DNA of 64,000 nucleotides. It comes from Eubacteriales bacterium. GTDB lineage: Bacteria; Bacillota; Clostridia; Oscillospirales; CAG-272. Positions within the stretch are counted from its first letter, which is position 1, and every line of letters begins with the position of its first letter. The stretch lies in the NCBI GenBank assembly GCA_045631445.1, contig JAZQUS010000067.1:9020-73019 (forward strand). Direction: 5' to 3'. Both the position numbers and the translations under genes were made by a program. Positions 3,888 through 37,578 of this stretch are shown here, piece after piece. The notes beneath the pieces were generated by a model. It made no database searches. It was not told where the DNA came from and saw only the letters and a program-made list of their open reading frames with translations.

Positions 3888-3956
3888 AATCAATCTATAG
3901 ACCTATTATACGAAAAACTTTACTTGTATTTCGTTGCGATCAGAACTGGAGTTATT

Positions 3957-5105
3957 ATGCATATATATACTGGCGCCGATATGGCGCAACAATCAAACGG
4001 TGAGCTAAGTGCTTCACAAATTAGAGGAGTTTGGCACAGACCTAATTCAAGTGAAAGAGAACGCAATCTCGACGAGCTTAAAGTAGTTCTTGATGAATTT
4101 AAGGAGGCGGGAATAAATCTTGTATTCCTTGAAACGTTCTATCACGGAATGGCGGTATATAAGACCGACCTTGTTGATTATCACATTAAGCTTGAAGGTT
4201 TTGAATACGGTGAATACCCCGATTACCTTTCCGCTTTTGTAGCAGAAGCAGAAAAGAGAGGCATTTCCGTATATGCTTGGGTGCAGGACTTTTATATTGG
4301 ATTTAGAGATTATATCCGTCTTGTTACCGAGCATCCCGAATGGCTTTTGATAAATCAATCGGGTGAGATTAGACACTTGACAGAGGGTCAGGGCTTTGGA
4401 GGATATATCTTCCTCGATCCTGCCAATGAAGAGGTTAAGGATTTTCTCATTTCAATTTATAGCGAAATTCTTACAAAGCACCCTGCGATAAAGGGTCTTA
4501 ACCTCGACTATATCCGTTATCCTATTTCGGAGTTTTCTGAGGGCACGGATACAGGTTACACAAAGATTTCAATGCTTGAATTTGCAAAAAAGCAGGGAAT
4601 TGAGCTTTGCGAAAATACTTCCATTAGTGATTTTAACAAGATTATTCGTGAAAAAGGTCTTGTTGGTGCGTGGACTGCTCATAGAGCCGCTTACGTAACG
4701 GGATTTGTTGAGAGAGTACACAATATGCTTGAGGAAAAGCATACCGGCAAGCTTATATCTACCGCTGTTTTTGCAGAGATAGGACAAACCTATGAATTGA
4801 AAAAGCAAAACATTAAGGTGTGGCTTGATAGCGGATACGTTGATTTTGTTACTCCAATGGTATATTTCTACGAGGCAGATCAAATTTTTGAATCTGTATC
4901 AAAAATGAAATCTATATGCGGTGATATTCCTTGTTATACAGGACTTTATACCACATATCATAAGCAAACACAAAGCGAGCTTTTGGAACATATTGATGCG
5001 AGCAAGCGCGCAGGTGCTAACGGATTTGTTCTTTTTGATGCGGCTAAAACATTTTTTGAAGCCGAAGTGGATTATAGAAGCGTTTTAGGTCAACTAAATG
5101 ACTAA
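3957..5105 (+). CDS. GHL10 (glycosyl hydrolase-like 10, PF02638/DUF187-like) protein, no signal peptide (cytoplasmic)
   Basis: RGVWHRP..., NLVFLETFYHGMAVY, FLDPANEEV and GLNLDYIRYP motifs are shared with the two downstream paralogs. GGAG lies 5 nt before the ATG at 3957. There is no N-terminal hydrophobic segment. Confidence 0.7.
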   Translation: MHIYTGADMAQQSNGELSASQIRGVWHRPNSSERERNLDELKVVLDEFKEAGINLVFLETFYHGMAVYKTDLVDYHIKLEGFEYGEYPDYLSAFVAEAEKRGISVYAWVQDFYIGFRDYIRLVTEHPEWLLINQSGEIRHLTEGQGFGGYIFLDPANEEVKDFLISIYSEILTKHPAIKGLNLDYIRYPISEFSEGTDTGYTKISMLEFAKKQGIELCENTSISDFNKIIREKGLVGAWTAHRAAYVTGFVERVHNMLEEKHTGKLISTAVFAEIGQTYELKKQNIKVWLDSGYVDFVTPMVYFYEADQIFESVSKMKSICGDIPCYTGLYTTYHKQTQSELLEHIDASKRAGANGFVLFDAAKTFFEAEVDYRSVLGQLND

Positions 5106-5160: not shown

Positions 5161-8100
5161 ATGAAAAGAAAAGTTTTAAAAATCAGTCTTGTTTGCTTAA
5201 TCCTTTCTCTTGTTGCTGTAATTGGTATCGGTATTTTCGCTATTGAAGGTGAATATACGCGTGATATTACAAAATACGGGCTCGCAGTGACAGCAAACGG
5301 TCAAGTAATCACTGGTGTATATTCAGACCCTGTTGATTATTGGGAAGTTGCAAGCAGTGGTACACTTAATGACTATGAAATTCGTTACGACACTGTTAAT
5401 GAAGTGGATTCTGTTATCTACACAGGCTTCTATCCTAATACAACAACAGGACGCGTTGGTGAAAACATTGTTGAGTATGTTTGCGAAAAGCAGGACAAAG
5501 CTTACGTTGTTACAAAAATCAACGAAAGTGGTGACGGTACTACCTATATTCCTTTGAACGGATTTGTGTTCTCTGTAAACAAAACTGTTGTATCCGATTT
5601 TGCAAATATTGGTGATGAAGTAGCAATCACAGGTGAAATCAGCATTCCCACAAGAGCTGTTGAATCAACCTCAGGTAAGAGAATAGTTGTTGATGCAACT
5701 AATGCAACACGTTCACAGCCCATGGTAGTTTACTATGACTACCAGTTTGGTGAAAAAACAGGTACTAACGTATTTGGTACCGAAATGATTTGCGAATTTA
5801 ATTTTGAAAAAAATACATTTATTGTAACAGGATTCCGTCCTTTCCTTTCCGGAGATGACTCAGGTTCCTATATTCCGGACAACGGATTTGTTCTCAGTGC
5901 TTACGGTGAGGGCTACCGCGCGCTTCTTGCTGCGGGTGAGCTTTTCAAAAAAGGCGATGAAGTGAAGATGGTTGGTTTTGATTACGTTCGTTTCGGTGGC
6001 ACTGTCCACGGAACATTCGATCATATTAACCCCACTAAAGAAACTAACCCAAGCGGTATGGAAACCGCAACAGATGAATTTCCTGCGTTCAGAGGTACTG
6101 ACCAAACGATTATTTATAAGGATGGTTGGGACTATAAGGGCTCTGCAGGAACAGGTACTAACGTTTACGGTTTCGAAGCAGCAGTTAATGCTAACGGTAT
6201 CGTAGTTGAGCTTGGTGTTAACGTTTCTAAAATTCCCGAGGGTGGTTACGTAATTTCAGGACACGGTATTGGACGTGACTTTATCCGTTCAAACGTTGTT
6301 CTTGGTGCAACAATCGTTCTTGATGAGGTTAATAAGACATATTCAGTTTCAACAACCCTTAATAGCTACTATGAAAACCTTGTTACTAATGTTGAAACAG
6401 TTATCGACGTTGCAAAGTCAAGAATCAAGCAGCTTTATGATGTAAACGTTGATGTTATTAACGAATATATCGCAAAGGTTGAAGCAGAGCTTGAAACTCT
6501 TCGTGTGCTTAAGGAATCTATTGAAGAAAAGCTTGCTGATCCTGATCTTACCGAAGAAGAGCGCTTGGCATTGCTTATGAATTATAACAATAGCCAGCTT
6601 AAGATTGAAAAGCTTCGTCAGAGCATCCTTGTTTCCTCTGCAGAGAGCAAGGTGGTTTCTGCTCGTGCAGTATGGCATAGACCTATTGAAGCAAATTATA
6701 CAGAAATCAAGACAAATGTTGAGATGTATAAGAAAATTGGTATCAACCTTATCTTCGTTGAGACTCTTTATAACGGATATTCTTCATTTAGAAGTGAAGT
6801 TGAAGAATTCCCCTATCATAAGAATCTTGCTGCTACATATACCGATGAAAACGGTAATGTATATAACGATTACCTCTCCGCTTTCCTTGCATGCTGCAAA
6901 GAAAACGGAATTGAAGTACATGCATGGGTTGAAAACTTCTACGTTGGTATTGATCCCCAAGTTACAGTATTGAAAATGCATCCTGATTGGGTAATGTATA
7001 ATGAAGACGGAACAACCGTTCAGCGTAATGAGGGTGGTCCTTATTACTTCATTGACCCCGCAAATAAGGAAGTTCAGGATACACTTATTGCTTATTATAA
7101 TGATCTTCTTGCAAAGAATCCCGAATTAGCAGGTCTTAATCTTGACTATATTCGCTATCCTGTTTCAAACGAAGTGGAGGATACAGGCTTTACAATGGCT
7201 GCAATGAAGGGCTTCTATGAACTTCTTGGCAAGGAATTTACAGCAAATCAGCTTTCTGATAGAACTAAGATGTATAATAAATTCAAACAGTTGTTTGATA
7301 AAAATTATCTTCTTGGCGGTCAGGCAGAAGCAGATGCTAACTATAAGCAATGGGTTAATTACCGCATGAGCGTTATTACAGAATACGTTCGTCGCATTAA
7401 GAACGAGGTTAAGGATGCAAACGGCGTTATGCTTTCAACATCCGTATTCGCTTCTTTGACAGAATCTACAAATTCCAAGAAGCAGGACTGGAGAACCTGG
7501 TTCCTTAACGGTTGGATTGACCTTGCAACTCCTATGGCATATTACACAGATGCTACAGACGTTAACGCAAGAGTTAAGGATATGATCCTTATGGCAGGTA
7601 ATAACTGCTTGTACTATACAGGTATCGCATCCTCTTATAGCGGACTTCCCGCATGGCAGAATAAGGAGCACATTGAAGCTTCTTACAATGCAGGCGCTAA
7701 TGGTTACGTAATTTTCTGTTCAACTCAGATTATCGGTCACGAGGACGTTCAAAATGCTCTTATGAGCGGTGTAAATAGCAAATGGGCAGTATTGCCTCAC
7801 GCAGCTATTGAAGAAGTTCTTACTGCTATGTTCGAAAGCATTCTCGATAAGGCAGACAGACTTTATATTCCCGCAGGCGGTATGACAGAGGAGAATAAGG
7901 CAGAGCTTGAAGCAATTTTTGCGGAAATTCTTGCAATGCCTCATGAAAATGCGGAAGATATTTATAATATTGTTAAGGCACTTCAGAGCTTGTCAAAGAC
8001 AGACATCAAGAACTATGCAAAGGGCTATTCTCGTCAGAGAATTATCGAACAGCTTAACGAGCTTGCTGATATTCTTGATGCAAGAATTTCAATGCAGCTT

Positions 8101-8310
8101 ATCGCAGACGGTGAATGGGATCCCGAAACAGACCCCATGCGTCCTTCATTCGAGGAAGAAAACAACAATACTCCCGTTGTTCCCAATCCTCCCGTTAATG
8201 ACAATACAAACGATAACAATAACACTCAAGAACCCGAGGAGCTTGGCTTCTTCGCAAGAATTATTCAGGCAATTATCCTCTTCTTCAAGAGATTGTTTGG
8301 CTTGGTATAA
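5161..8310 (+). CDS. surface multidomain GHL10 protein (1049 aa)
   Basis: Architecture: N-terminal signal/anchor (LVCLILSLVAVIGIGIFA), triple beta-module region, coiled coil, GHL10 domain, N/D/P-rich linker, C-terminal hydrophobic tail. The catalytic region carries ARAVWHRP, INLIFVETLYNGYS and GLNLDYIRYPVSN. The tail is FFARIIQAIILFFKRLFGLV. Confidence 0.75.
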   Translation: MKRKVLKISLVCLILSLVAVIGIGIFAIEGEYTRDITKYGLAVTANGQVITGVYSDPVDYWEVASSGTLNDYEIRYDTVNEVDSVIYTGFYPNTTTGRVGENIVEYVCEKQDKAYVVTKINESGDGTTYIPLNGFVFSVNKTVVSDFANIGDEVAITGEISIPTRAVESTSGKRIVVDATNATRSQPMVVYYDYQFGEKTGTNVFGTEMICEFNFEKNTFIVTGFRPFLSGDDSGSYIPDNGFVLSAYGEGYRALLAAGELFKKGDEVKMVGFDYVRFGGTVHGTFDHINPTKETNPSGMETATDEFPAFRGTDQTIIYKDGWDYKGSAGTGTNVYGFEAAVNANGIVVELGVNVSKIPEGGYVISGHGIGRDFIRSNVVLGATIVLDEVNKTYSVSTTLNSYYENLVTNVETVIDVAKSRIKQLYDVNVDVINEYIAKVEAELETLRVLKESIEEKLADPDLTEEERLALLMNYNNSQLKIEKLRQSILVSSAESKVVSARAVWHRPIEANYTEIKTNVEMYKKIGINLIFVETLYNGYSSFRSEVEEFPYHKNLAATYTDENGNVYNDYLSAFLACCKENGIEVHAWVENFYVGIDPQVTVLKMHPDWVMYNEDGTTVQRNEGGPYYFIDPANKEVQDTLIAYYNDLLAKNPELAGLNLDYIRYPVSNEVEDTGFTMAAMKGFYELLGKEFTANQLSDRTKMYNKFKQLFDKNYLLGGQAEADANYKQWVNYRMSVITEYVRRIKNEVKDANGVMLSTSVFASLTESTNSKKQDWRTWFLNGWIDLATPMAYYTDATDVNARVKDMILMAGNNCLYYTGIASSYSGLPAWQNKEHIEASYNAGANGYVIFCSTQIIGHEDVQNALMSGVNSKWAVLPHAAIEEVLTAMFESILDKADRLYIPAGGMTEENKAELEAIFAEILAMPHENAEDIYNIVKALQSLSKTDIKNYAKGYSRQRIIEQLNELADILDARISMQLIADGEWDPETDPMRPSFEEENNNTPVVPNPPVNDNTNDNNNTQEPEELGFFARIIQAIILFFKRLFGLV

Positions 8311-8328
8311 TTAAATGCAATTCGAGAA

Positions 8329-10467
8329 ATGAAGGGAGGGGTTGTTATCAAGTGTATAACAAAAATTCTTGTTGTATTTTTAGCCGTTGCTATTTTAGGA
8401 ACTACTTTCTTGTCCGCATCTGCTATACAGATGTTGAGTAATGAATCTTCTATGATAAAAAGTGCTAACGTTACTACATCCTCTCTTAATTCTACATATA
8501 ATAGTGCATCTAATAAGGTTAGTTCAGCTGTGAAATCTGCAGAAACTAAGCTTTCACAGCTGTATGACCTTGATAAAGAGCTTATTGATTCTTATATTTC
8601 ACAAGCTAAAAGTGAGATAAAGAGGATGGAAACTCTTAAAAGTAATATTTCGAATCTTCTTAATACAAGCCCCAACAGTGCTCAAATAGATACTTTGGTT
8701 GGGCAATTCAACGAAGCAAATGCGCGTGTTAATGAGCTTTGCACTCTCATTAATGTATCATTGATTGAAAGCAAGGTTGTTTCGGCAAGATCTATGTGGT
8801 ATCGCCCCTGCGAAAAAACATATGCCGAAATAAAAGCTAATGTTGAGATGTTTAAATCCATTGGTATTAATCTTATATTCGTTGAAACCTTTTATCATGG
8901 AATGAGTGCATTCAGAAGTGATATTAGTGATATTCCTTATCACACAAGTCTTGCTGGGTCCTATATCGACAACGAAAACAAAATAATGTATGAAGATTAT
9001 CTTTCTGCTTTTGTTGCTTGTTGCGTTGAAAATGGAATTGAAGTGCATGCTTGGGTTGAAAATTTCTACGTTGGAATTAATGCAAACACCAAAATCATTG
9101 TCGAGCATCCCGATTGGATTATGTATAACGATGACGGTACTATTACCCAACGTAAAGAGGGCGGGGCATACATCTTTATTGACCCTGCTAACAAGGATGT
9201 TCAAGATTTGCTTATTGATTACTATAATGAGTTATTCGAGAAGCATCCCGAGGTAAAGGGACTCAATCTTGATTACATTCGCTATCCTGTTTCTAACAAA
9301 ACCACGGATACCGGATTTGCGATTGGGGCAATGAAGGGCTTTTATGAGCTTCTTGGCAAAGAGTTTAATGAAGAACAACTTTCTGACCGAAAGAAGATGT
9401 ATAATAAGTTCAAGCAGTTGTTTGACAAAAATTATCTTTTGGGTGGACAAACCGAAGCCGATTCAAACTACAATAAATGGTGCGAATATCGAACTCAAGT
9501 TATATCTGATTTCGTTTACCGTATTAAAACCGAGGTAAAAGAAACAAACAATATTGTTCTTTCAACCGCCGTGTTTGCTTCGCTTAGCGAATCTATAAAT
9601 TCAAAAAAAGCGGATTGGCAAACTTGGTTTAAAGAGGGATGGATAGAGATAGCTACTCCTATGGCTTATTATTCAACTGCTTCTGCAGTTTTATCCAATG
9701 TGCAATCGATGATTTCGACTGGTGGAAATAAATGTCTTTATTATACGGGTATCGCATCCTCTTATAGTGGATTGCCTGCATATCAAAACAAGGAATTTAT
9801 TGAAGCTTCCTATAAAGCGGGTACTTGCGGATATGTAATATTCTCGGGTGCTCAAATCGTAGGACACAAGGATGTTCAAGACGTGCTTGCAAGCGGAGTA
9901 AATAATAAGTGTGCGGTTTTGCCACACGCTCCTATTGATGAGATACTTAAGGCGAGCTTTGATGATATAATTGATAAGGTCGATAGAATTTACGTTCCCT
10001 CAGGTGAAATGAGTAGCTCTAATAGGGAAGAACTTAAGACAAAATTAGATACTATTTTGCAGATGCCCTATTCCACTCAAGAGGAGATTGCGGAAATATA
10101 TTCCGTTCTTCAAGAATTGAGAGGAGCCTTACAGTCATATGCAACGGGATATTCCTTGCAAAGATTGACTGAAAACGTTGATTATCTTGCAAAAATTATC
10201 AATACAAGATCACTTATGCCCATTGTTGAAGAGGAAATACTTCCTCCTGATGACAACGGAACAAATGACAATGAGGGCGGTGAAACTGATAATGAGGAAG
10301 ATAAAACCGACGACACAACAAATAATGACGGTGTTAATGATGACAACGGCAAAAATGACGAGTCACAGACACAACCGCCTGTAGAAACTCCTGTAAAGAA
10401 AAGCTTTTTTGCTAAGCTTATTGAAGCAATAATGCTTTTCTTTAAAATGCTTTTGGGTTTGGCTTAA
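8329..10467 (+). CDS. surface GHL10 protein (712 aa), tandem paralog of 5161-8310
   Basis: N-terminal hydrophobic segment and coiled coil. The GHL10 domain has long runs identical to the upstream paralog (KMYNKFKQLFDKNYLLGGQ, NGIEVHAWVENFYVGI, CLYYTGIASSYSGLPA). An acidic D/N/T-rich linker precedes the tail FFAKLIEAIMLFFKMLLGLA. The exact start is uncertain because the RBS before 8329 is weak. Confidence 0.75.
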   Translation: MKGGVVIKCITKILVVFLAVAILGTTFLSASAIQMLSNESSMIKSANVTTSSLNSTYNSASNKVSSAVKSAETKLSQLYDLDKELIDSYISQAKSEIKRMETLKSNISNLLNTSPNSAQIDTLVGQFNEANARVNELCTLINVSLIESKVVSARSMWYRPCEKTYAEIKANVEMFKSIGINLIFVETFYHGMSAFRSDISDIPYHTSLAGSYIDNENKIMYEDYLSAFVACCVENGIEVHAWVENFYVGINANTKIIVEHPDWIMYNDDGTITQRKEGGAYIFIDPANKDVQDLLIDYYNELFEKHPEVKGLNLDYIRYPVSNKTTDTGFAIGAMKGFYELLGKEFNEEQLSDRKKMYNKFKQLFDKNYLLGGQTEADSNYNKWCEYRTQVISDFVYRIKTEVKETNNIVLSTAVFASLSESINSKKADWQTWFKEGWIEIATPMAYYSTASAVLSNVQSMISTGGNKCLYYTGIASSYSGLPAYQNKEFIEASYKAGTCGYVIFSGAQIVGHKDVQDVLASGVNNKCAVLPHAPIDEILKASFDDIIDKVDRIYVPSGEMSSSNREELKTKLDTILQMPYSTQEEIAEIYSVLQELRGALQSYATGYSLQRLTENVDYLAKIINTRSLMPIVEEEILPPDDNGTNDNEGGETDNEEDKTDDTTNNDGVNDDNGKNDESQTQPPVETPVKKSFFAKLIEAIMLFFKMLLGLA

Positions 10468-10542
10468 AACCGAAATTCAAATGATTTTCAGATGCTTTGC
10501 ATCTTAAAATAAAAAATTAATTAATACTTAGGAGGTATTACT

Positions 10543-13500
10543 ATGAAGATGTCAAAATTTTTGACAGCCATTGCGTTGATCCTTGTATTGATCGTTGGAT
10601 TAACGGCTTGTAATTTCCCTGGGGTAGAAACTCCCCCAACAACAACATCTACAACCACAACTCCTACGACTACTCCCAATCAGGGTGGTGATCCCACACC
10701 TGATCACGAATGTGAGAGCGTATGTCCTACTTGTGGCTTGTGCTTGAACGCAGAGTGTGCTGAAGCAATTTGCTCAGCTAAGTGTGAAGGACATCAGTCC
10801 ACTCCCACAGAATCCACACCCGTAATCACAGTTTCTCCTGAAAATATTGAAATGAATGCAGGTGAAGAAATTGATTTGATGATTGGTGTTACTGTTTTCG
10901 ATGAACTTGATGAAGAACCTAGACTCATCATCGAAGACGATGACGGTTTTGATGCAGATGTTGAAGGTACTTACACAATCACATACCTTGCTCAGAACAA
11001 GTTTGGCAACACAGCAACAGCTACAAGAACAATCGTAGTTAATAAGGCACTCTCCGCTCTTTCTCTTGAAGTTCAAAAGAATCTTCTTGGTGAATCTAAG
11101 TGGCAGGGAACAATCCTTAGCTTTAAGAATCACGAATATGTAGTTCTTAACGCAAGCGCAACTCTTGACAAGCAGAGCGGTGTATTCTACAATGCATCTT
11201 CTTCCGAAATCACAGTTACAATTTCTAACAGTGACTATGCAGTAGTTGCTATTATCACAGCTAATGGTGTAGTAATTGAAGGTCGTGACGGTGCAAACAA
11301 TAGACTTGTAAATGCATCTAATCCTGTTCGTACTTCAAGTACAGCAAAGCTTGGTGACATTAATAAGGTTGCTGACAACATGGTAATCCCCGCAGGCGGT
11401 TATGCTATCGTAGTTCAGTCCGGTTACGCAGGTACAGGCGTTGACTTTGACGGACGTGGCTTTATGAACTATAACGTAATTGGTACATACGGCAACGTAG
11501 TACGTCTTGTTTGGGCTGATACAGCTGAAGTTCTTACTCCTTACATTGACCAGGCTCCTGTTATTTCCGGTAACGATACAGAAATCGTTGCAGGTAACGG
11601 TTTTGAGCTTTCTACTGGCATTCTTGCAGGCGTAACAGCTAAGGACGATAACGGTACATTTGATCCTTCTGATGACGTAACAGTAGAAATTACTATTGCT
11701 GATGAAGGTGGATTTGATATTTCCCAAAACGGCGTTTACACAATTACTCTTTCTGCTACAGATGGAACACACACAACAACAGCAACTCGTAAGGTTGAAG
11801 TTACAACAAGTGCAGTTGAAGTTGTTGTTAACGGTAATGTTCATACAACAGTAGATAACCTTATCGCAGTAGATAAGGACCTTACAGTTCTTGGTAAATA
11901 CACATTCGTAATTTACACACCTGACTACAAGGGTGGTCTTAACTGGTCCAACGGTTGGGGTGAAGCATTCGTCATCAACCAGTATGGTGAAGTAATCCGT
12001 ATCTACGACGGTGCTAATGGTAAGTATTATGACCTTGAAAATCCTGCAGGTATCGTTGATGCATCTAAGTGCACAGCAGCAGGCTATTTGACAGAAGCAT
12101 TCAACTCTCGTCAGGCAGGTGAATACCTTCTCGTTGCTCCTAACGGTAACGGTAACGTTACAAGATCCTTCTTGCTTGCTAACCGTGTAATCGGTGCGAA
12201 GGTAGTTCTTCCCGGTATTGCATTTGCACACAAGTGCGAAAGCGTTTGCGTTCAGTGCGGACTTTGTCTTGATGCAGAATGCACAGAGGCAGCTTGTGCT
12301 GCAAAGTGCGAAGGTCACGTTCACAACTGTGAAGATATTTGTGAAGTATGTGGAAAATGCACATCTGAATGCGACAACGAAGTTTGCGCAGCTAAATGTG
12401 ACTGTGTAACAGTTGTTGTTAATGGTAAATCTCTTAAGATCCTTGCTGGAACAATCGCTATTGACGAAGCTAAGCCTTCTCTTGGTTCTTACAACTTTGT
12501 AGTTTATACATATGCTTTCAAGGCAGAGAACGAAACTCTTTCTTGGGGCAATGGCTGGTCACAGGCATTTATCCTTAACCAGTACGGTCAGGTAGTTCGT
12601 ATTTACGACGGCGTAAGTGGTGGTAAGTACTTCGATGCTGCTAACAGATCAGGTGTAGCAGGTGTTACTGCTGCAGGCGACACATTGAAAGATGCTTATG
12701 CATCTCTTTCCGAAGGCGAAACACTTATTCTTGGTGCTAACGGTGGTATGAACGGTAACGCAGGCCGTAGCTTCCTTGGTGGTGTTCGTGTAATTGGTGC
12801 TCTTGCAACAATTCCCGGTGTAACATTTGAAGCTCTCCCTGAGCACGCTTGCGAAAGCAAATGTGCAGATTGCGGTAAGTGTATGGATGCAACCTGCATC
12901 ATGCCCGATTGTCTTGCTCAGTGCGCTTGTCACAGATGCGAAAGCGTTTGTGCTAAGTGTAACGGATGCTTGGATCCCGCTTGTACAGAAAAGGCATGTG
13001 AAACAAAGTGCTCTTGCCACGACTGTGAAAGCCTTTGCGCTATCTGCGGCGGATGCAAGGATACAGAATGTACAAATGACGTATGCGCTAAGAAGTGCGT
13101 ATGCACAGACACAAGCGCAAACAAATATTTTGCTATAAACGGTACATTCTTTATGGCAGCTGAAGGCAAGTGGTTGTATAACACACAGTGTGGTAACACA
13201 ACTGAGCCCAAGGCACAGAACTACAGAATGATTATCTTTGATAGAAATTACAAGGGTACATTTACAACAAATAGCTACGGTGTAGCAGTTGTAGTTGACG
13301 GTAACGGCAAGCTCGTTAAGGGTTATGCTTGGGACGGTTACTACACAGCTGAAGGTAAAGCAGCTATCCACTATGCAGTAGGTGACTACGCAACAACAGC
13401 TTTTGCTGAGCTTAAGGCAGGCGAAGTTCTTATTATCTTTGCTAATGACGGTGTAAACGCAGCAGATTCTGCTCGTACATTCGGTAAGTCCCTTTGCGAT

Positions 13501-14163
13501 AACTGGGCAACAACAATGGGTAAGGATGTTGTATTGACAGGTTACACATTCAGCGTTCCTGCTCACGAATGTGATCACGTATGTCCCGCTTGTGGACTTT
13601 GCCTTGATGCAGAGTGCGCAGAAGAGGTTTGCGCTTCTAAGTGCCAGGGACACGCTCACGTTTGCGACAAGGTTTGTGCAACCTGCTTCGGTTGTAAGGA
13701 TGCAGCTTGTGCAGAAGAAGTTTGCGCAACAAAGTGCGGATGCTTGGCAATGACAATCGGCTCTAAGGCATATACAGCAACATCAGGCAAATGGGCATAT
13801 AACCAAGAAATCACAACATCTACTGCTGCTAACAAAGCAATTTGGATTTTTGACAAGAATTACACAGGTAATTTCTCCACAAACGGTTACGGTGTAGCAG
13901 TAGTTCTTGACGCTGCAGGCAAGGTAATAAGAGTTTATGACGGCGCAAATGTTGGTTATTGGTTGCCCGCAGGTAAGCAGGCATCTGCTCATTTCAATGC
14001 AAATACATTTGCAACAGTAGCTTGGTCCGAACTTCAGGAAGGTGAAACACTCGTTGTATTGCCCAACGGTCCTGATGGAAACAAAGCTCGTCAGATTGGT
14101 CTTGATTCCCGTTATCTCTTCAATCAGAAGATGAATCTTGTTAGCCTTACTTATAACAAATAA
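10543..14163 (+). CDS. Cys-rich modular surface lipoprotein (1206 aa)
   Basis: AGGAGG RBS and signal peptide with lipobox LTAC (Cys23), then a T/P-rich linker. Eight copies of a 7-Cys unit lie at 10705-10794, 12229-12405, 12844-13104 and 13564-13743. Two Ig-like (DUF5011-like) segments and about five beta modules (GWGEAFVINQYGEVIRIYDG type) are also present. Confidence 0.8.
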   Translation: MKMSKFLTAIALILVLIVGLTACNFPGVETPPTTTSTTTTPTTTPNQGGDPTPDHECESVCPTCGLCLNAECAEAICSAKCEGHQSTPTESTPVITVSPENIEMNAGEEIDLMIGVTVFDELDEEPRLIIEDDDGFDADVEGTYTITYLAQNKFGNTATATRTIVVNKALSALSLEVQKNLLGESKWQGTILSFKNHEYVVLNASATLDKQSGVFYNASSSEITVTISNSDYAVVAIITANGVVIEGRDGANNRLVNASNPVRTSSTAKLGDINKVADNMVIPAGGYAIVVQSGYAGTGVDFDGRGFMNYNVIGTYGNVVRLVWADTAEVLTPYIDQAPVISGNDTEIVAGNGFELSTGILAGVTAKDDNGTFDPSDDVTVEITIADEGGFDISQNGVYTITLSATDGTHTTTATRKVEVTTSAVEVVVNGNVHTTVDNLIAVDKDLTVLGKYTFVIYTPDYKGGLNWSNGWGEAFVINQYGEVIRIYDGANGKYYDLENPAGIVDASKCTAAGYLTEAFNSRQAGEYLLVAPNGNGNVTRSFLLANRVIGAKVVLPGIAFAHKCESVCVQCGLCLDAECTEAACAAKCEGHVHNCEDICEVCGKCTSECDNEVCAAKCDCVTVVVNGKSLKILAGTIAIDEAKPSLGSYNFVVYTYAFKAENETLSWGNGWSQAFILNQYGQVVRIYDGVSGGKYFDAANRSGVAGVTAAGDTLKDAYASLSEGETLILGANGGMNGNAGRSFLGGVRVIGALATIPGVTFEALPEHACESKCADCGKCMDATCIMPDCLAQCACHRCESVCAKCNGCLDPACTEKACETKCSCHDCESLCAICGGCKDTECTNDVCAKKCVCTDTSANKYFAINGTFFMAAEGKWLYNTQCGNTTEPKAQNYRMIIFDRNYKGTFTTNSYGVAVVVDGNGKLVKGYAWDGYYTAEGKAAIHYAVGDYATTAFAELKAGEVLIIFANDGVNAADSARTFGKSLCDNWATTMGKDVVLTGYTFSVPAHECDHVCPACGLCLDAECAEEVCASKCQGHAHVCDKVCATCFGCKDAACAEEVCATKCGCLAMTIGSKAYTATSGKWAYNQEITTSTAANKAIWIFDKNYTGNFSTNGYGVAVVLDAAGKVIRVYDGANVGYWLPAGKQASAHFNANTFATVAWSELQEGETLVVLPNGPDGNKARQIGLDSRYLFNQKMNLVSLTYNK

Positions 14164-14197
14164 TTTTAAACAATAACACAAAAACAATTTAAAAATA

Positions 14198-14221
14198 TCC
14201 CCATCGCCTTCGGGCGATGGG
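14198..14221 (+). other. GC-rich stem-loop inside the locus (no U tail)
   Basis: CCCCATCGCC-TTCG-GGCGATGGGG, a 10-bp stem with a TTCG loop, lying between the lipoprotein gene and the phosphodiester glycosidase gene. Confidence 0.4.
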
Positions 14222-14241
14222 GCAACAGAGAAGAGAAAAAA

Positions 14242-15843
14242 ATGAAAAAAATATTTACTTCTTTAACAGTTGTAGTAGCATTAGTTCTTTTAATGACTAT
14301 TACAGTTTCCGCTGCTTTTTCTTCAAGCGTGCTTTCTAATCCCTCTTATTCTAAAAATATTGATGGTATTATTTACAAGGAAGCAACAGTTTCTGAGAGC
14401 GGAACACAAAAGATTTTCTACGGTGAGTATAATGCCACAACCGAAGACGCCGAATATGAATGGGTAATTCATAGCATTAGAGATGGTTCAGATACAACAC
14501 TTTCAAATGTTATGAAAATTGCTAAGGACTATGAAGCAAAAACAGGTCGCAAGGTAATGCTCGCAGTAAACGGTGACTATTTCTATAATACAGGCGCGAA
14601 CGTAGATTCCTATGTAAATAACGGTATCGTTATTTCTAAAGGAAATATGGCAAATAAAAATTGCATTGGCTTTGATAATAATGGAAAAGTTGTGATTGGC
14701 AGAATGACTGAAACAGCAATTCGCCTTGTTACTTATGATAAGAACGGTAATTCACAATTTTTCAAGGTTGATAAATTTAATGAACAACCCGCAGAAGGTG
14801 AGATAGCTATTTACAATGCTGCAGGTACATATACAGTTACTAATGCAGGTGCAATGGTGGTTAAAACAGAAGCAACTAACATGACTTCATATCCTCTTTT
14901 GGGTACCGACTCCACCTTGACAGCAACCGGTGTTCAAGAAACAAAGGAATTTACTCTTAAGAGTGGACAGTTTGCAGTTGTTTACACATCTGCTCATAAC
15001 GATGAGTTTGGTAAGCACGCTTACGGTGAAAAGGTTGACCTTGTTGAAGTTCCTGCAGGTGAATTTGCAGGATGCACTTGGGTAGTTGGTGGTTATGATG
15101 CTCTTGTAGACAACTTCGTTGCTAACACAAACTGCCATACAGATAATAGCGGTAATGCCGCAGCTCCTCGTACATTCCTTGGATTTAAGGAAGACGGCAC
15201 AGGCTTTGTTTGTGTAGTTGACGGACGCGGTGCAGGCGGTTCTACAGGTATCACAGTAAATCAGGAAGCACAGCTTGCAAAGGTTCTTGGTGCACAGTTT
15301 GCTCTTGAGCTTGACGGTGGTGGATCTTCCACTATGGTTGTTCGTATCAATGATACTCTAACACTTCGCAACGCTCCTTCCGATGGCTCTATGAGAGCAG
15401 TATCTAATGCCGTGTTGCTTGTTGAAAAGCCCAAGGCAGAGGAATCACACGAGCATAGCTTCGTTGAAGGTAAGTGCGAGTGTGGTGAGACCGACCCCAA
15501 TTATAATTCAGGTTCAAATGAAACTCACGAGCACAAGTGGAGTGCTCCAACATGTACAAGTCCTCGTACATGTGAATGTGGTGAAACACTTGGTGCGGCT
15601 CTTGGACATAAATACTTTGAGGGTGTTTGCACAAGATGTCAAGCAGAGGATCCCGAATACGTAGCTCCTCACGAGCACAGCTTCGTTGAAGGCAAGTGCG
15701 AGTGTGGGGAAGAGGATCCTAATTATCAAGTGGAAGATAATACCAACCCACAGCAGCCCGCTGGAAACCAAAATTCCTTTGCTGCGTGGATTCAAGCTAT
15801 TATCGATGCAATTATTAAGTTTTTTATGGAATTATTTTCCTAA
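14242..15843 (+). CDS. phosphodiester glycosidase family protein (NAGPA/DUF2233-like) with Cys/His repeats and C-terminal hydrophobic tail
   Basis: Signal peptide (LTVVVALVLLMTITVSA). AVNGDYF and ALELDGGGSSTMVV motifs are typical of PF09992. The C-terminal third has HEHSFVEGKCECGE(T/E)DPNY twice, plus related CxxC segments. The tail is FAAWIQAIIDAIIKFFMELFS. Confidence 0.7.
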   Translation: MKKIFTSLTVVVALVLLMTITVSAAFSSSVLSNPSYSKNIDGIIYKEATVSESGTQKIFYGEYNATTEDAEYEWVIHSIRDGSDTTLSNVMKIAKDYEAKTGRKVMLAVNGDYFYNTGANVDSYVNNGIVISKGNMANKNCIGFDNNGKVVIGRMTETAIRLVTYDKNGNSQFFKVDKFNEQPAEGEIAIYNAAGTYTVTNAGAMVVKTEATNMTSYPLLGTDSTLTATGVQETKEFTLKSGQFAVVYTSAHNDEFGKHAYGEKVDLVEVPAGEFAGCTWVVGGYDALVDNFVANTNCHTDNSGNAAAPRTFLGFKEDGTGFVCVVDGRGAGGSTGITVNQEAQLAKVLGAQFALELDGGGSSTMVVRINDTLTLRNAPSDGSMRAVSNAVLLVEKPKAEESHEHSFVEGKCECGETDPNYNSGSNETHEHKWSAPTCTSPRTCECGETLGAALGHKYFEGVCTRCQAEDPEYVAPHEHSFVEGKCECGEEDPNYQVEDNTNPQQPAGNQNSFAAWIQAIIDAIIKFFMELFS

Positions 15844-15878: not shown

Positions 15879-17435
15879 ATGAGAAAGATTTTATCTTTAA
15901 TTCTTTTGGCAACTATGCTTCTCACAAGCGTACTTGCTACATCTTGTGGCGATGATAAGGGCGACAAGACAAATACAGACGAAATCAATTACGATATTGA
16001 TTTGTCAAACAAGCCCACACTTAACGTTTTGATGCCTAACTCCGGTAAGGATATCGCATCTGTTAACAATAACGTTAACGCACAGGTTATCCAGCAGATT
16101 ACAGGTTACACTGTAAACTACACTCAGCTTCCTGCTGATGCAACAACAACTCTTAACACAATTATGATGGATAAAGAGCAGTATGATGTTATGAAGCTCA
16201 CAAAGGATCAGTTCAGTGACCTTGTTGACCAGGATATGCTTCTTGATATCACAGATGCGCTTAAGACATTCGCTCCCGATATGCTTGCTAATATTTCTCA
16301 GGAATCTTGGGACGTTGTAACTGTTGACGGAAGAATTTACGGTATTCCCGAACGTGCTTCCAGTGACAATATCGAAAACCCCATCGTTCTTAACTATGAC
16401 CTTATACTTGAATTGGGACTTGATGTTCCCGAAACTCTTGAAGAATTCACAGCAGTTCTTAAGGCAATGACAGAGCACCTTGGTAAGCCTGCTTTGACAT
16501 TTGATAAGTTTACTCCTCTCGTACCCGCTATTTCCGCAGCTTTCGGTATCTATACATACTGGCAGGAATATGACGGTCAGGTTCTTTACTATATGAACGC
16601 TCCTAGATATAAAGATTATGTTGATTATATGCATTCTCTTTATGAAGCAGGTTACATTGATCAGGAAGTTGCAACAAATGACGCAGCAACTGCAACAAAC
16701 CGTTTCGTAAATAGCTTTGACGCTTCCGCAGGTGGCGCAAAGGCAGGCGCATACGCTTGTTCATTGTGGACAGTTTCCGCAATTACAACAGGTCTTTCTA
16801 CAAAGGGTATTGATACAACTGATACACTTGACAACCACCTTGCATACGTTCGTTCTCTTAAGGAAAACGCAGGCGATACAGAAAAGGTATATCGTTCAAG
16901 CGGTTATACATACATCACAGCTATTCCTTACTACATGGCAGACAGAGCAGGCTACGCTCTTGACTGGATGAACTCCAAGATTAAGGATACAGAAACAGAG
17001 GATAACTTCCGTACAATGGTTATCGGTGAAAAGGATGTTCACTGGACATTGACAGCAGACGGTTCATATATGCCCATCAACCCTGCATTCGCAGAAAAGG
17101 ATGATGCTTCTTACTATATGACAGGTTCTAACGAAAACAAGTACACAGAATACTGGCTTGCTCGTGTACGTAAGCAGCCCGAACTCTTCAGAGCTTGGTC
17201 CACTATGATGGAAGATGCTGATTCTGTTGGTGTTTACAACATCGTTGACTTTACTCCTCCTCTCAAGACATATACGGCTAACCGTTCTAACATTGAAACA
17301 AATGCTCAGGACTGGTTCTATATGATGCTTAAGGATGGCTCAGGTAAGCTTGCTGAATACCAGACAAAGCTTAACGGTCAGTATAAGTGTGCTGATGCAA
17401 CTGCGGAAATCAACAACTGGTACAATAACAAATAA
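15879..17435 (+). CDS. ABC transporter extracellular solute-binding lipoprotein (large LplA-like family 1 SBP)
   Basis: Signal peptide with lipobox ATSC (Cys23). The ~518-aa size and sequence character match Firmicutes oligosaccharide-binding proteins, and two sugar-type permease genes follow. Confidence 0.8.
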   Translation: MRKILSLILLATMLLTSVLATSCGDDKGDKTNTDEINYDIDLSNKPTLNVLMPNSGKDIASVNNNVNAQVIQQITGYTVNYTQLPADATTTLNTIMMDKEQYDVMKLTKDQFSDLVDQDMLLDITDALKTFAPDMLANISQESWDVVTVDGRIYGIPERASSDNIENPIVLNYDLILELGLDVPETLEEFTAVLKAMTEHLGKPALTFDKFTPLVPAISAAFGIYTYWQEYDGQVLYYMNAPRYKDYVDYMHSLYEAGYIDQEVATNDAATATNRFVNSFDASAGGAKAGAYACSLWTVSAITTGLSTKGIDTTDTLDNHLAYVRSLKENAGDTEKVYRSSGYTYITAIPYYMADRAGYALDWMNSKIKDTETEDNFRTMVIGEKDVHWTLTADGSYMPINPAFAEKDDASYYMTGSNENKYTEYWLARVRKQPELFRAWSTMMEDADSVGVYNIVDFTPPLKTYTANRSNIETNAQDWFYMMLKDGSGKLAEYQTKLNGQYKCADATAEINNWYNNK

Positions 17436-17459
17436 AACATTATCAAAGGAGTGCACAAT

Positions 17460-18401
17460 ATGAGCACCAAAAAACAAAAAATGACATTCGGAGCAAAGGT
17501 GAAAAAGTATAAATCGCTTATTCCTTTTGTTATTCCTGCAATGATGTTTGCTCTGGTTTTCTCATATTTACCTATGACGGGTATATTGATTGCCTTTAAG
17601 GACAATCCAAACTTTTTGAGATACGATGTTATAACTGCATTCCAAAAATCTGAATGGACACTTGAAAACTTTAAAATATTGTTTTCCGACCCTGAAATTT
17701 TGTCTTACATCAGAAATACTTTGATTATTTCTGTTATGAAGATAGTAATTTTGTTCCCATTGCCAATAGTTTTGGCAGTAATGATTACCGAGCTTAGAAG
17801 CAAAAAGTTTTCTAAGCTCGTGCAGGGAATAGTTTTCTTGCCACACTTCTTTTCTTGGGTAGTAATTGTTGGTATTTTCAATAGCATTTTTGGAATGTAT
17901 GGACCAATCAACAATTTAAGTGTTGCCCTTGGCGGAGAAGCAATTCACTTTATGGGTGAGCCAGGTTGGTTTAGATGGCTTGTTGTAATCCTTTCAGGTT
18001 GGAAGGAAATTGGATATAGCTCCATTGCGTATATTGCCGCAATTATGTCAATTGACCCCGCACTTTATGAAGCGGCAAAAATTGACGGTGCAGGTAAGCT
18101 CAAGCAAATTTGGAATATCACAATTCCTTCAATTATGCCTACTATCATAGTAATGCTTATCATTCGTATAGGTTATCTTATGGATGCGGGCTTTGAGCAG
18201 GTATATGCTATGCTTAACTCACTTACAAGAGAAACGGGTGAAATCATTGGTACATACGTTTACCGATTGGGCTTCTCAATGGGTAAGAGTAACTATGGTT
18301 TATCCACGGCTGTTGGTTTGTTCAATGGAGTAATATCCTTGATATTGATTCTTTCTGCAAACTACTTCAGTAAAAAGAAAACAGGAAATGGTGTGTGGTA
18401 A
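17460..18401 (+). CDS. carbohydrate ABC transporter permease (LplB/MalF-like)
   Basis: Six predicted TM segments and the EAA-type loop YEAAKIDGAGKLKQIWNITIPS. ATG at 17460 lies 9 nt after AAAGGAG. Confidence 0.85.
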   Translation: MSTKKQKMTFGAKVKKYKSLIPFVIPAMMFALVFSYLPMTGILIAFKDNPNFLRYDVITAFQKSEWTLENFKILFSDPEILSYIRNTLIISVMKIVILFPLPIVLAVMITELRSKKFSKLVQGIVFLPHFFSWVVIVGIFNSIFGMYGPINNLSVALGGEAIHFMGEPGWFRWLVVILSGWKEIGYSSIAYIAAIMSIDPALYEAAKIDGAGKLKQIWNITIPSIMPTIIVMLIIRIGYLMDAGFEQVYAMLNSLTRETGEIIGTYVYRLGFSMGKSNYGLSTAVGLFNGVISLILILSANYFSKKKTGNGVW

Positions 18402-18403
18402 TT

Positions 18404-19279
18404 ATGGCAAAGAATTTAATAGTAAAAAAGAGCAATAAAATCAAAGAAAATCGTTTGTTTAACACTATAAACGTTATAGCGTTGGCAATTATATCGATTG
18501 TCTGCTTTATACCATTTCTTAACGTATTGTCCGTAGCATTGTCAACTGCGGGAAATGATATTAACTTTACTCCCAAGGGATTTACTTGGTTTAACTTTCA
18601 GTACGTTTTAACTGACGCTGGATTTTGGAGAGCAATGGGAGTATCCTTCCTTGTGGTTGTATGTGGTACATTACTTTCAGTAACTGTAATGTTCGCGGCG
18701 GCTTACGCATTGTCTAAACCTAATTTCCCTGCAAGAAAGGGCATTATGGTATTCTTTATTATCGTAATGATCTTCTCAGGCGGTATGGTACCCAACTACC
18801 TCGTAGTTAGTACATTGGGACTTACTAAAACTCCTCTGGCTCTGATTTTGCCATCGGTTGTTCAGGTTTATAACCTTATTTTGATCAGAAGCTATCTTGA
18901 AGGACTTCCTCTCGAGCTTGAGGAATCTGCATCCATTGACGGAGCGAACAACCTTCAGATTATGTTCAAAATATTGTTGCCAATGTCAATGCCTTGCGTA
19001 GCAAGTGTAAGCTTGTTCACAGCTGTAACGCTTTGGAATAACTACACAAGCGCGTTGCTTTATCTTGGTACTGAAGAAAAATGGTACCCCTTGTCGCTTT
19101 ATATTCTTAACTACATCCAGTTGCCTCCTGATACTCTTTCAGTAGCAATGAAGGATTTGCAGAAGGATAATATTGAAGCGGCTATGATCGTTGTTAGTAT
19201 AATTCCCATCTTGTTAGTATACCCATTGGTACTTAAGTACTTTACAAAGGGTGTAACAGTTGGTGCAGTAAAGGGATAA
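18404..19279 (+). CDS. carbohydrate ABC transporter permease (LplC/MalG-like)
   Basis: TM-rich with the loop LEESASIDGANNLQIMFKILLP. ATG at 18404 lies 2 nt after the upstream stop. Confidence 0.85.
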   Translation: MAKNLIVKKSNKIKENRLFNTINVIALAIISIVCFIPFLNVLSVALSTAGNDINFTPKGFTWFNFQYVLTDAGFWRAMGVSFLVVVCGTLLSVTVMFAAAYALSKPNFPARKGIMVFFIIVMIFSGGMVPNYLVVSTLGLTKTPLALILPSVVQVYNLILIRSYLEGLPLELEESASIDGANNLQIMFKILLPMSMPCVASVSLFTAVTLWNNYTSALLYLGTEEKWYPLSLYILNYIQLPPDTLSVAMKDLQKDNIEAAMIVVSIIPILLVYPLVLKYFTKGVTVGAVKG

Positions 19280-26637: not shown

Positions 26638-26659
26638 GACTATCGGAGTTTGCGTTTTT

Positions 26660-26698
26660 GTGCGGTTACTTCGGTAGCCGCACTTTTTGTTTTTTTTA
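26660..26698 (+). terminator. intrinsic terminator inside the leader, directly upstream of the RBS
   Basis: GTGCGGTTAC-TTCG-GTAGCCGCAC stem-loop followed by TTTTTGTTTTTTTT. AAGGAG and the ATG (26716) follow. Confidence 0.75.
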
Positions 26699-26715
26699 GA
26701 AAGGAGAAAAGGATT

Positions 26716-27699
26716 ATGAACAAAAAAGTGTTAATTGGTATTATAGCAGCGGTTGTTGCTATAGGTGCAGTTGTTGGAGGTGTGTTCTTGTTCAAGCACG
26801 AGCACGTTGAAGCGGTTGATGTGGCAGTAGCACCCACTTGCGAAGAAACAGGTCTTACAGAAGGTAAGCACTGCTCGGATTGTGGCGAGGTTTTGGTGGC
26901 GCAAGAGGTAGTGGCTGCTACAGGTCATACCGAAGTTGTTGATGCGGCAGTAGCTCCTACTTGCGAAGAAACGGGACTCACAGAGGGCAAGCATTGTTCG
27001 GCATGTAACAAAGTACTTGTAGCGCAGAAGACGGTAGCTGCGCTTGGACACAAGGAAGTAGTTGACAAGGCAGTTGCAGCAACCTGTGAGAAGACAGGAC
27101 TTACAGAAGGCAAGCATTGTTCGGCATGTAACAAAGTACTTGTAGCGCAGAAGACGGTAGCTGCGCTTGGACACAAGGAAGTAGTTGACAAGGCAGTTGC
27201 AGCAACCTGTGAGAAGACAGGACTTACGGAAGGCAAGCATTGTTCGGTATGTAACAAAGTACTTGTAGCACAGGAAACAGTAGAGGCTACGGGACATGAC
27301 TATGATGTTGAAAGCTTAGAAAATGAGGGTAAAGTAGGAAGCAAGGTTACATATAAGTGTAACAATTGCGAAGACACATATGATGATGTTATTGATGAAA
27401 TCAAAATATCGGTACGCAACACAAGTACATCATCTGCTACAATGAATGGATATGGTTCGTGGACTAAATATTATTCTGCTAATGCTTCAGGCGGATATGG
27501 TAAATTAAAGTATAAATTTGAAGTATATGTGAGTAAGACATCCAAAAATCCAGTTTCAAATTTGACGGAAGATTTCTCATCTAAAAATTCTTATGGTATA
27601 TCCTATAGAGGTTACGAGAATTATATTAGCGGTTGGATTTTGAGAGTAACTGTTAAGGATGAAGCAGGAAACGAATGTGTATACGACTATGAGTTCTAA
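26716..27699 (+). CDS. membrane-anchored surface protein with four 41-aa Cys/His repeats
   Basis: AAGGAG RBS and N-terminal TM ([22 protein letters not shown]). Four units follow, of the form [38 protein letters not shown], then a ~130-aa beta-rich C-terminal domain. Confidence 0.8.
26806..27297 (+). repeat. 4 x 123-bp in-frame tandem repeat (units at 26806, 26929, 27052, 27175)
   Basis: Period measured from recurring GGCAAGCATTGTTCGG at 26986, 27109 and 27232. Units 3 and 4 are nearly identical at DNA level. Units 1 and 2 are more diverged. Confidence 0.9.
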
Positions 27700-37577: not shown

Positions 37578-37578
37578 T

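Follow-up and report, generated by a model that had tools for sequence, protein, structure and literature searches.

Exported proteins of Gram-positive bacteria are usually assigned to the lipoproteins, the LPXTG proteins, the proteins with wall-binding repeats, the transmembrane (TM) proteins, or the 'released' proteins. C-terminal amphipathic anchors are missing from the devices listed in a 2025 review of protein trafficking in Gram-positive bacteria. An anchor of this kind has been shown experimentally for E. coli PBP5, an enzyme exported by means of a signal peptide and held at the outer face of the inner membrane by its last 18 residues (PMC2909392); the membrane-targeting sequence (MTS) of MinD has been reviewed as well (PMC6803595). 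Here we describe related C-terminal tails of about 20 residues on three exported enzymes, P1, P2, and P3, which are encoded in a stretch of 64,000 nucleotides from an Eubacteriales bacterium (assembly GCA_045631445.1, contig JAZQUS010000067.1, positions 9,020 to 73,019; the whole stretch is called the window, and all coordinates refer to it). The tail is probably a C-terminal amphipathic α-helix that anchors the enzymes in the plane of the membrane (a monotopic anchor of the PBP5/DacA type) and keeps them at the cell surface.

P1 and P2 are paralogs of the GHL10 family, while P3 belongs to the NAGPA family, which is unrelated to them. All three share the same layout of signal sequence, catalytic part, flexible linker, amphipathic helix, and stop codon:

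5161–8310, + strand: P1, exported GHL10-family glycosidase-like enzyme of 1049 amino acids (aa) with a tail (PF02638 GHL10, 5.6e-17, residues 515–804)
8119–8241, + strand: low-complexity linker of P1, about 41 aa, DPETDPMRPSFEEENNNTPVVPNPPVNDNTNDNNNTQEPEE (read from the translation)
8242–8307, + strand: tail of P1, LGFFARIIQAIILFFKRLFGLV, C-terminal amphipathic helix and canonical copy of the motif (matched by an independent tail profile)
8329–10467, + strand: P2, exported GHL10 paralog of 712 aa with a tail (open reading frame (ORF), translation, and Pfam scan)
10228–10401, + strand: low-complexity linker of P2, about 58 aa, rich in D, N, E, T, and G (translation)
10402–10464, + strand: tail of P2, SFFAKLIEAIMLFFKMLLGLA, the same helix in a more hydrophobic form (independent tail profile)
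14242–15843, + strand: P3, exported NAGPA-family phosphodiester glycosidase of 533 aa with a tail (PF09992, 1e-24)
15715–15774, + strand: linker of P3, DPNYQVEDNTNPQQPAGNQN (AlphaFold2 (AF2) pLDDT <50 for residues 499–511, no secondary structure)
15775–15840, + strand: tail of P3, SFAAWIQAIIDAIIKFFMELFS, C-terminal amphipathic helix (AF2 helix, independent profile, and orthologs)

The N-termini of all three proteins are hydrophobic; that of P1 is of the signal type (MKRKVLKISLVCLILSLVAVIGIGIFA), that of P2 (..AVAILGTTFLSASA/IQ) has the appearance of a cleavable signal peptide, and that of P3 (..LLMTITVSA/AF) is signal peptide-like. The tails extend to the stop codon with no residue left before it (P1, ..EELGFFARIIQAIILFFKRLFGLV; P2, ..KKSFFAKLIEAIMLFFKMLLGLA; P3, ..NQNSFAAWIQAIIDAIIKFFMELFS), follow linkers rich in N, D, T, P, and E, and were aligned ungapped by MAFFT in the register IIQAIILFFKRLF / LIEAIMLFFKMLL / IIDAIIKFFMELF. 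Neither LPXTG nor a TM segment with a basic cluster is present at the C-termini of P1, P2, and P3. A preliminary description of this DNA had reported three related tails of about 20 aa at the stop codons, each preceded by a linker and each on a protein with an N-terminal signal, and had noted the lack of LPXTG and of a trailing cationic stop-transfer sequence; its coordinates and sequences are exact, the linkers and signals are seen in the translations, and both absences were confirmed. The likeness expressed in its by-eye consensus also stood, although the best MAFFT register differs slightly from that consensus. P3 additionally carries three HEHSFVEGKCECGExDPNY repeats between catalytic domain and linker (15430–15715), and the segment IQAII-DAII of its tail (15790–15822) resembles a small internal repeat. 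Partial tandem duplications of the tail, e.g. ..FQRIQQAIQSFFQRVRQAISDFFKKLFGKK and ..FFKKLFGGLFGRSK, occur in some GHL10 orthologs (P0250, P0222, P0246, P0235, P0267).

That the three tails resemble each other beyond chance was confirmed by a profile made from 32 tails of other protein families, GHL10 and NAGPA being left out, which was searched against all 326 six-frame ORFs (≥60 aa) of the window. The top three matches of this independent profile were the C-termini of P1 (27.0 bits, E = 5e-8), P3 (10.6 bits, E = 0.007), and P2 (5.8 bits, E = 0.22, weak by itself); the remaining ORFs scored ≤3.4 bits, and no further tail-bearing ORF was found among the 326. The P2 orthologs P0192–P0211 form a continuous gradation from the P2 tail to the P1-like LGFFARIIQAIINFFKKLFGLA.

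When 67 non-redundant tails were compared, they aligned without gaps to the consensus F-x-x-F-F-p-p-I-[IW]-p-A-I-h-p-F-F-p-p-L-F-[SG] (short form, FF-x-x-I-[WIF]-x-A-I-x-x-FF-x-x-LF-[GS]), with I and F invariant and A, F, L, and F nearly invariant. Their column-averaged hydrophobicity shows a single sharp peak at 100° per residue, the value of an α-helix, and the height of this peak was reached by none of 10000 shuffles. The hydrophobic moment averages 0.63 in the tail family and amounts to 0.46–0.60 for the tails of the window, with P1 at 0.60. In the AF2 model of P3 (59-sequence alignment, mean pLDDT 84), residues 499–511 are disordered and are followed by one terminal helix (residues 512–532). 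The tail is not covered by any Pfam or NCBIfam model, as judged from scans of the full-length proteins and of the C-terminal 20–33 residues alone; a match to Pfam SelK_SelG (E = 0.16–0.21) was rejected as due to chance, and a profile search of the PDB with the tail gave only chance internal matches, none of them significant.

Orthologs of the enzymes indicate what the helix may be for. Among the 120 best NAGPA orthologs, 94 end in an amphipathic tail, and the remaining 26, which are more distant, have a classical TM helix followed by KKRKK after the same type of linker. About 101 of 120 GHL10 orthologs carry the tail and at least 17 a TM helix with KKK, the P1-type linker preceding the tail or TM anchor in this family, too. 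One or the other element was recognized in 238 of the 240 orthologs, with P0273 and P0275 unclassified. In hydrophobicity and hydrophobic moment, the two classes form clearly separate groups: the maximal hydrophobicity over 18 residues is 0.48 for the tails versus 0.89 for the TM-type tails of the orthologs, and the latter have a hydrophobic moment of 0.23. On the simplest reading, tail and TM anchor would be alternative solutions to one task, attachment to the cytoplasmic membrane; the membrane is indicated as the target of the tail because TM anchors replace it in two families.

The element is not restricted to these families. An exhaustive HMMER search of 1.84 billion cluster representatives with a tail profile of 25 positions returned 71 proteins at E ≤ 1e-3 (best, 8e-9), and in 55 of the 70 proteins that were new, the match reaches to within 8 residues of the C-terminus. 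The consensus of the matches, EE(K)LNFFQ[RK]IWxAI[VL][ND]FF[KR][KN]LFG, is followed by 0–5 charged residues and preceded by P/E/T/D linkers, and the full-length proteins begin with a signal peptide or a lipobox. Cargo families comprise pectate lyase with CBM77, X25/CBM26 starch-binding proteins, metallophosphoesterase, GH3, rhamnosidase-like proteins with CBM35, polysaccharide deacetylase, and surface proteins of the Ig-like and Listeria-Bacteroides-repeat types. A word-indexed homolog search with the three tails and their linkers, a method that relies on shared 5-mers and is insensitive, yielded one fragment only. In four phage tape-measure proteins (P0159 and P0184, with PF10145, and also P0186 and P0191), several tandem internal copies of FF-x-x-[IL]-W-x-x-I-x-x-FF are present, which probably reflect convergent amphipathic helix packing.

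DNA of one genome per GTDB species was also scanned with a degenerate pattern for I-[I/W..]-x-A-I-x-x-F-F-x-x-[L/F]-F-G, giving at least 119 loci, which are a sample and not a census. Among the matches listed, 48 of 119 lie ≤6 codons from the stop codon of an ORF ≥100 aa; such C-terminal matches make up 38 of 62 in records labelled Firmicutes, 5 of 7 in records labelled spirochaete, and 5 of 50 in records belonging to neither group, the labels being assigned by us on the basis of the record titles. One class among the C-terminal matches is formed by large exported proteins of Clostridia, Oscillospiraceae, and Eubacteriales; L107, a close relative of P1 and P2, ends in ..LGFFARIIQAIILFFKKLFGLA. 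DUF1002 (YpuA-like) proteins with signal peptide and tail occur in Lachnospiraceae, Bacillaceae, Streptococcus, and Tissierellia. Their tail has the form ..FFxNIFxAIxDFFSGLFG at the stop codon (L009, L014, L024, L030, L067, L103, about 20 more loci, P0132, and P0135), and the DUF1002 proteins of L007 and L073 (Ruminococcus/Oscillospiraceae) and L043 (Lachnospiraceae) have an extra acidic extension after the helix. The motif, which the preliminary description had proposed to look for in related Clostridia, is found across Clostridia and other Firmicutes on unrelated exported families; given this spread and the amphipathic periodicity, it is not confined to the three proteins and is unlikely to behave as a plain TM helix.

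The full motif was also observed at the end of small signal-less ParB_N proteins, at 7 spirochaete loci among the matches listed (L012, L034, L051, L065, L099, L108, L111; about 130 aa, ending ..NPGFFRRIWNAIVAFFRRLFGRS). These carriers would be membrane-tethered ParB-like or nuclease-like proteins, and their lack of a signal shows that the element is apparently used at the cytoplasmic face, too. The same DNA pattern was uninformative on viral contigs, where it mostly matched the TM segment of a holin-like protein of about 76 aa (L125 and about 40 similar loci); among the viral loci L133, L149, L168, and L174, two contigs encode a protein that begins with the motif (MKKIFMAIINFFKSLFGKKEEP..) and two have short ORFs that end with it.

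When the register is set by the terminal F-G, 9 of 20 residues of the P1 tail agree with the anchor of E. coli PBP5 and 7 of 20 with that of PBP6, and the BLOSUM62 score is 36 in both cases. The independent profile detected E. coli DacA (10.4 bits, p = 2.6e-5) and DacC (5.8 bits), and did not detect DacD. A stronger bridge to these proteins is provided by L036 of Holzapfeliella saturejae (Lactobacillaceae), a DD-carboxypeptidase of the DacA type (Peptidase_S11 and PBP5_C) with the strict motif at its C-terminus. BLASTP aligned L036 with E. coli PBP5 from end to end (2e-23) with the tails in register (L036 tail, VDEMNFFEKIWHAISSFFSSLFG); among solved structures, S. pneumoniae PBP3 (1XP4) is its best relative, and PBP crystal constructs do not include the tail. 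It is because of L036 and the independent profile that we link the tail to the E. coli anchor: as far as sequence can tell, the tail on the glycosidases of the window is the same element as the one found at the anchor position of a PBP5 ortholog. The end of E. coli MinD, ..KKGFLKRLFGG, matches the second half of the tail, F[FL]KRLFG (FFKRLFG), and scores 2.8 bits with the independent profile. A MinD-type MTS was rejected as the identity of the window tails, since the export signals imply a different topology and the identity is local, limited to FxKRLFG. Because of the MinD match and of the signal-less ParB_N proteins, we favor the view that the tail would bind lipid generically and would not be a tag specific for export.

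In the mechanism we propose, the enzymes would be exported by the Sec system via their N-terminal signal sequences, and their catalytic domains would fold outside the cell. The last 20 or so residues would form one helix that partitions at the outer-leaflet interface, its F, I, L, W, and A lying in the lipid and its Q, R, K, E, and N facing outward, and the low-complexity linker of 20–58 residues would allow the enzyme to reach into or through the wall. The outcome would be non-covalent retention of glycan-degrading enzymes at the cell surface, beside a binding lipoprotein and ABC permeases, so that the released sugars could be captured. We infer cleavage of the signal peptides, lipid binding, the depth and orientation of the helix in the bilayer, and the physiological benefit. 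A helix for membrane insertion or amphipathic surface retention had been among the suggestions of the preliminary description; it is well supported by the periodicity, the alternation with TM anchors, the unrelated exported carriers, and the DacA/PBP5 ortholog.

Several observations weigh against anchoring by a PBP5-type helix. None of 100000 composition-preserving shuffles of the P1 tail reached the score with PBP5 or PBP6, but shuffling destroys the helical periodicity too, and part of this signal is the shared amphipathic register. An earlier tail profile (A3) scored the DacA, DacC, and DacD proteins of E. coli at 2–3 bits or nothing (DacA, 2–3 bits), and common ancestry of the tail and the E. 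coli anchor is a possibility only. Exported proteins of the locus described here have either a lipobox or a tail, one of the two; elsewhere, both occur on small proteins of 90–165 aa (P0137, P0140, P0165, P0176, P0180, P0183, P0128), which would be attached to the membrane at both ends. Anchoring by the tail would be redundant there, so the complementarity of lipobox and tail is not universal and a simple rule of one anchor per protein is weakened. The tails of P1 and P2 are among the most hydrophobic of the family (Kyte-Doolittle mean 1.7–1.8 over 20 residues), which makes deeper or even transmembrane insertion conceivable. Finally, the near-invariant A-I, FF, and LF are conserved beyond what simple amphipathicity needs, so that a protein partner is possible.

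The conservation of FF-x-x-I-W-x-A-I-x-x-FF-x-x-LFG on dozens of exported Clostridia proteins that are unrelated to each other, on the DUF1002 and DacA proteins of Bacilli, and on the cytoplasmic ParB-like proteins of spirochaetes may even be the mark of a specific recognition system, although we regard this as unlikely. Such a system could consist in a membrane receptor, a lipid microdomain that co-localizes surface enzymes, or regulated shedding or processing; if it existed, it would represent a new Gram-positive surface-display pathway beside sortase, lipoprotein, and SLH/LysM retention.

A protein-protein module, by which the tail would mediate coiled-coil oligomerization or dockerin-like docking to a common receptor in the membrane or on a scaffold, is quite unlikely. 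The heptad-like pattern (hhpphhp) with its near-invariant small Ala, a conservation above the needs of lipid binding, the occurrence of one module on many carbohydrate-active enzymes of Clostridia, and the similar repeats which tape-measure proteins use for helix packing would all fit. However, its replacement by plain TM anchors in two families points to the membrane as the target, the motif is found alike on exported proteins, cytoplasmic proteins, and PBPs, no conserved partner gene was detected near 48 tail loci, and one helix of 20 residues is short for a stable coiled coil.

That the tail is an ordinary single-pass TM helix (N-out, C-in) acting as stop-transfer anchor is very unlikely, even though the hydrophobicity of the P1 and P2 tails would allow it and the true C-terminal TM anchors of the orthologs demonstrate that such an anchor is functional in these enzymes. 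Charged and polar residues interrupt the tails (R, Q, K, and R in P1; K, E, and K in P2; Q, D, K, and E in P3), so that the longest uncharged stretch comprises about 9–10 residues, as compared with the ≥17 apolar residues and subsequent cytoplasmic K/R that characterize a TM anchor; a cytoplasmic cluster of basic residues does not follow. The polarity of the family consensus NFFQRIWQAIVNFFKKLFG is far too high, as reflected in its low maximal hydrophobicity relative to the TM-type tails, and the 100° periodicity is that of a surface helix.

Highly improbable is a sorting or processing signal, i.e., a tail that is recognized by a dedicated enzyme resembling sortase, exosortase, rhombosortase, or a CPBP protease and then cleaved and/or attached covalently to wall or lipid, a role which the preliminary description had considered. 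The motif is strongly conserved, strictly C-terminal, and present on several cargo proteins of one locus, and two tandem Rce1-like CPBP genes are located in the window (36513–38553). The CPBP genes, however, are separated from the tails by 21 kb and do not belong to the glycan operon, opposite-strand tRNA-synthetase genes lying in between, and no link to the tails was found. The tripartite layout of motif, TM helix, and basic cluster is absent, the helix being too polar to span the membrane and followed by only 0–5 residues; signatures of the LPXTG, PEP, and GlyGly types were not found in the three tails, and NCBIfam sorting-signal models did not match them even at E ≤ 10. The same motif is present on the cytoplasmic ParB_N proteins and on a PBP5 ortholog whose anchor needs no processing, and in DUF1002 proteins it can be internal with more sequence after it. 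Clustering of the flanking ORFs at 48 tail loci of up to 8 kb revealed no family common to the cargo classes, synteny being seen only within the DUF1002 loci. The suggestion of a recognition tag for a dedicated processing enzyme thus received no support, nor did the check for a co-occurring protease, which covered the window and the 48 tail loci, yield a candidate beyond the distant CPBP pair.

Chance or local paralogy as the origin of similar-looking hydrophobic C-termini is excluded by the independent profile, which singles out just the three tails in the window, and by the protein database search, in which matches down to E = 8e-9 among 1.84 billion proteins were nearly all C-terminal; P1 and P2 are paralogous and their tails related by descent, but P3 stems from an unrelated family.

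Anchoring by an amphipathic helix, as we prefer to read the tail, would place the three enzymes in a functional context with their gene neighbors. They are part of a + strand glycan-utilization operon, which comprises genes for a GH38 α-mannosidase, NanE, a DUF4127 protein, a signal-less GHL10 protein (3924–5105), P1, and P2, followed by those for a lipoprotein, P3, a substrate-binding-protein (SBP)-like lipoprotein, and two ABC permeases, and finally by those for ROK kinases, an FAD oxidoreductase, NagA, an aldose epimerase, and a mannose-6-phosphate isomerase (PMI). The gene set at 51–26284 (GH38, NanE, DUF4127, three GHL10, NAGPA, ROK, NagA, PMI, and ABC importer) suggests breakdown of a phosphodiester-linked glycan of HexNAc and mannose. 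Two further features of the operon concern export and uptake:

10543–14163, + strand: Cys-rich lipoprotein of 1206 aa without tail (lipobox LTAC)
15879–19279, + strand: importer made up of the SBP-like lipoprotein and two ABC permeases (lipobox ATSC; PF00528 twice)

The SBP-like lipoprotein (15879–17435, 518 aa) occupies the position of a substrate-binding protein next to the permeases and lacks a tail; a Pfam scan of it gave no match at E ≤ 1e-3. The preliminary description had noted the lack of the tail in the lipoprotein and the SBP of the locus, in agreement with our inspection of their C-termini; both have lipoboxes instead. The cytoplasmic, signal-less GHL10 protein has neither tail nor lipobox. 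The gene order from GH38 to the first ABC permease is repeated on a related metagenome contig, which also holds P1 (P0221) and on which a gene for an RpiR-type regulator is located upstream of the locus (L124). The exact sequence of P3 had no match among public assemblies. The lipoprotein of 1206 aa contains about eight copies of a Cys-rich module (e.g. HECESVCPTCGLCLNAECAEAICSAKCEGH) amid β-rich domains, and ORF 26650–27699 shows weak matches to EGF-like or zinc-ribbon-like models; Cys-rich extracellular repeats are unusual in an anaerobe. The two Rce1-like CPBP intramembrane protease genes (36513–37577 and 37579–38553) follow a gene for alanine racemase.

The tail had been described at first as a possibly unrecognized signal. 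This is correct insofar as no Pfam or NCBIfam model covers it and the tail on glycosidases was not found in the literature, while anchoring of this kind has been familiar from low-molecular-weight penicillin-binding proteins (PBPs) since the 1980s. Searches of the literature for the tail peptides or for amphipathic anchors of clostridial glycosidases found nothing specific, and papers on DUF1002/YpuA do not discuss the C-terminus. What we have not found described is the defined motif, its modular use on unrelated exported enzymes and DUF1002 proteins of Firmicutes, and its alternation with TM anchors. Should the tail prove to be an anchor, many of the carbohydrate-active enzymes that gut and rumen Clostridia are now scored to secrete freely would be cell-associated, which would change the view of public versus private goods in polysaccharide degradation. 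It would then also be a candidate surface-display tag of about 20 aa for Firmicutes and would provide a localization hypothesis for the uncharacterized DUF1002/YpuA proteins. Annotation would profit at once from a curated profile of the tail, which could easily be made.

Among the known systems, dockerins of cellulosomal enzymes are likewise a common C-terminal addition to carbohydrate-active enzymes of Clostridia that keeps them at the cell surface; a dockerin, however, is a Ca-binding domain of about 70 residues for cohesins, whereas the tail is a single helix of 20 residues with no detectable similarity to it and no identified partner. The signals of sortase (LPXTG), exosortase, archaeosortase, and rhombosortase resemble the tail in being C-terminal, in occurring on many exported proteins per genome, and in following low-complexity linkers, but the tail lacks their structure of signature, TM helix, and basic residues, a gene for an associated enzyme was not found in the window or near the 48 tail loci, and the motif is present on cytoplasmic proteins as well. 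C-terminal TM stop-transfer anchors take the same position after the same linker in orthologs of both families and are presumably functionally equivalent, whereas the tail of the window is amphipathic, too polar to span the membrane, and devoid of a basic cytoplasmic cluster. The MTS of MinD and FtsA, too, are amphipathic helices of short length at the C-terminus and bind to the interface of the bilayer; unlike the window tails, which sit on Sec-exported proteins and would be located on the outer leaflet, that of MinD acts at the inner leaflet, is about half as long (8–12 residues), and binds reversibly and in dependence on dimerization. The anchors of the class C low-molecular-weight PBPs (E. 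coli PBP5/DacA and PBP6/DacC, S. pneumoniae PBP3) differ from the window tails in cargo, which in the window consists of glycosidases and in other genomes of many unrelated exported proteins rather than PBPs, and in attachment, the PBP helix following directly on the PBP5_C domain and the window helix on a long low-complexity linker; moreover, the consensus of the Firmicutes, with near-invariant A-I, FF, and LF-G/S, is matched by the E. coli tails with only 2–10 bits. Common to the PBP anchors and the window tails are the N-terminal signal peptide, an amphipathic helix formed by the last 18–20 or so residues, a location that for the window enzymes would likewise be the outer face of the cytoplasmic membrane, and the pattern FF-x-[KR]-[IV]-[IW]-[DQ]-x-[IV]-...-F-x-x-[LW]-F-G.

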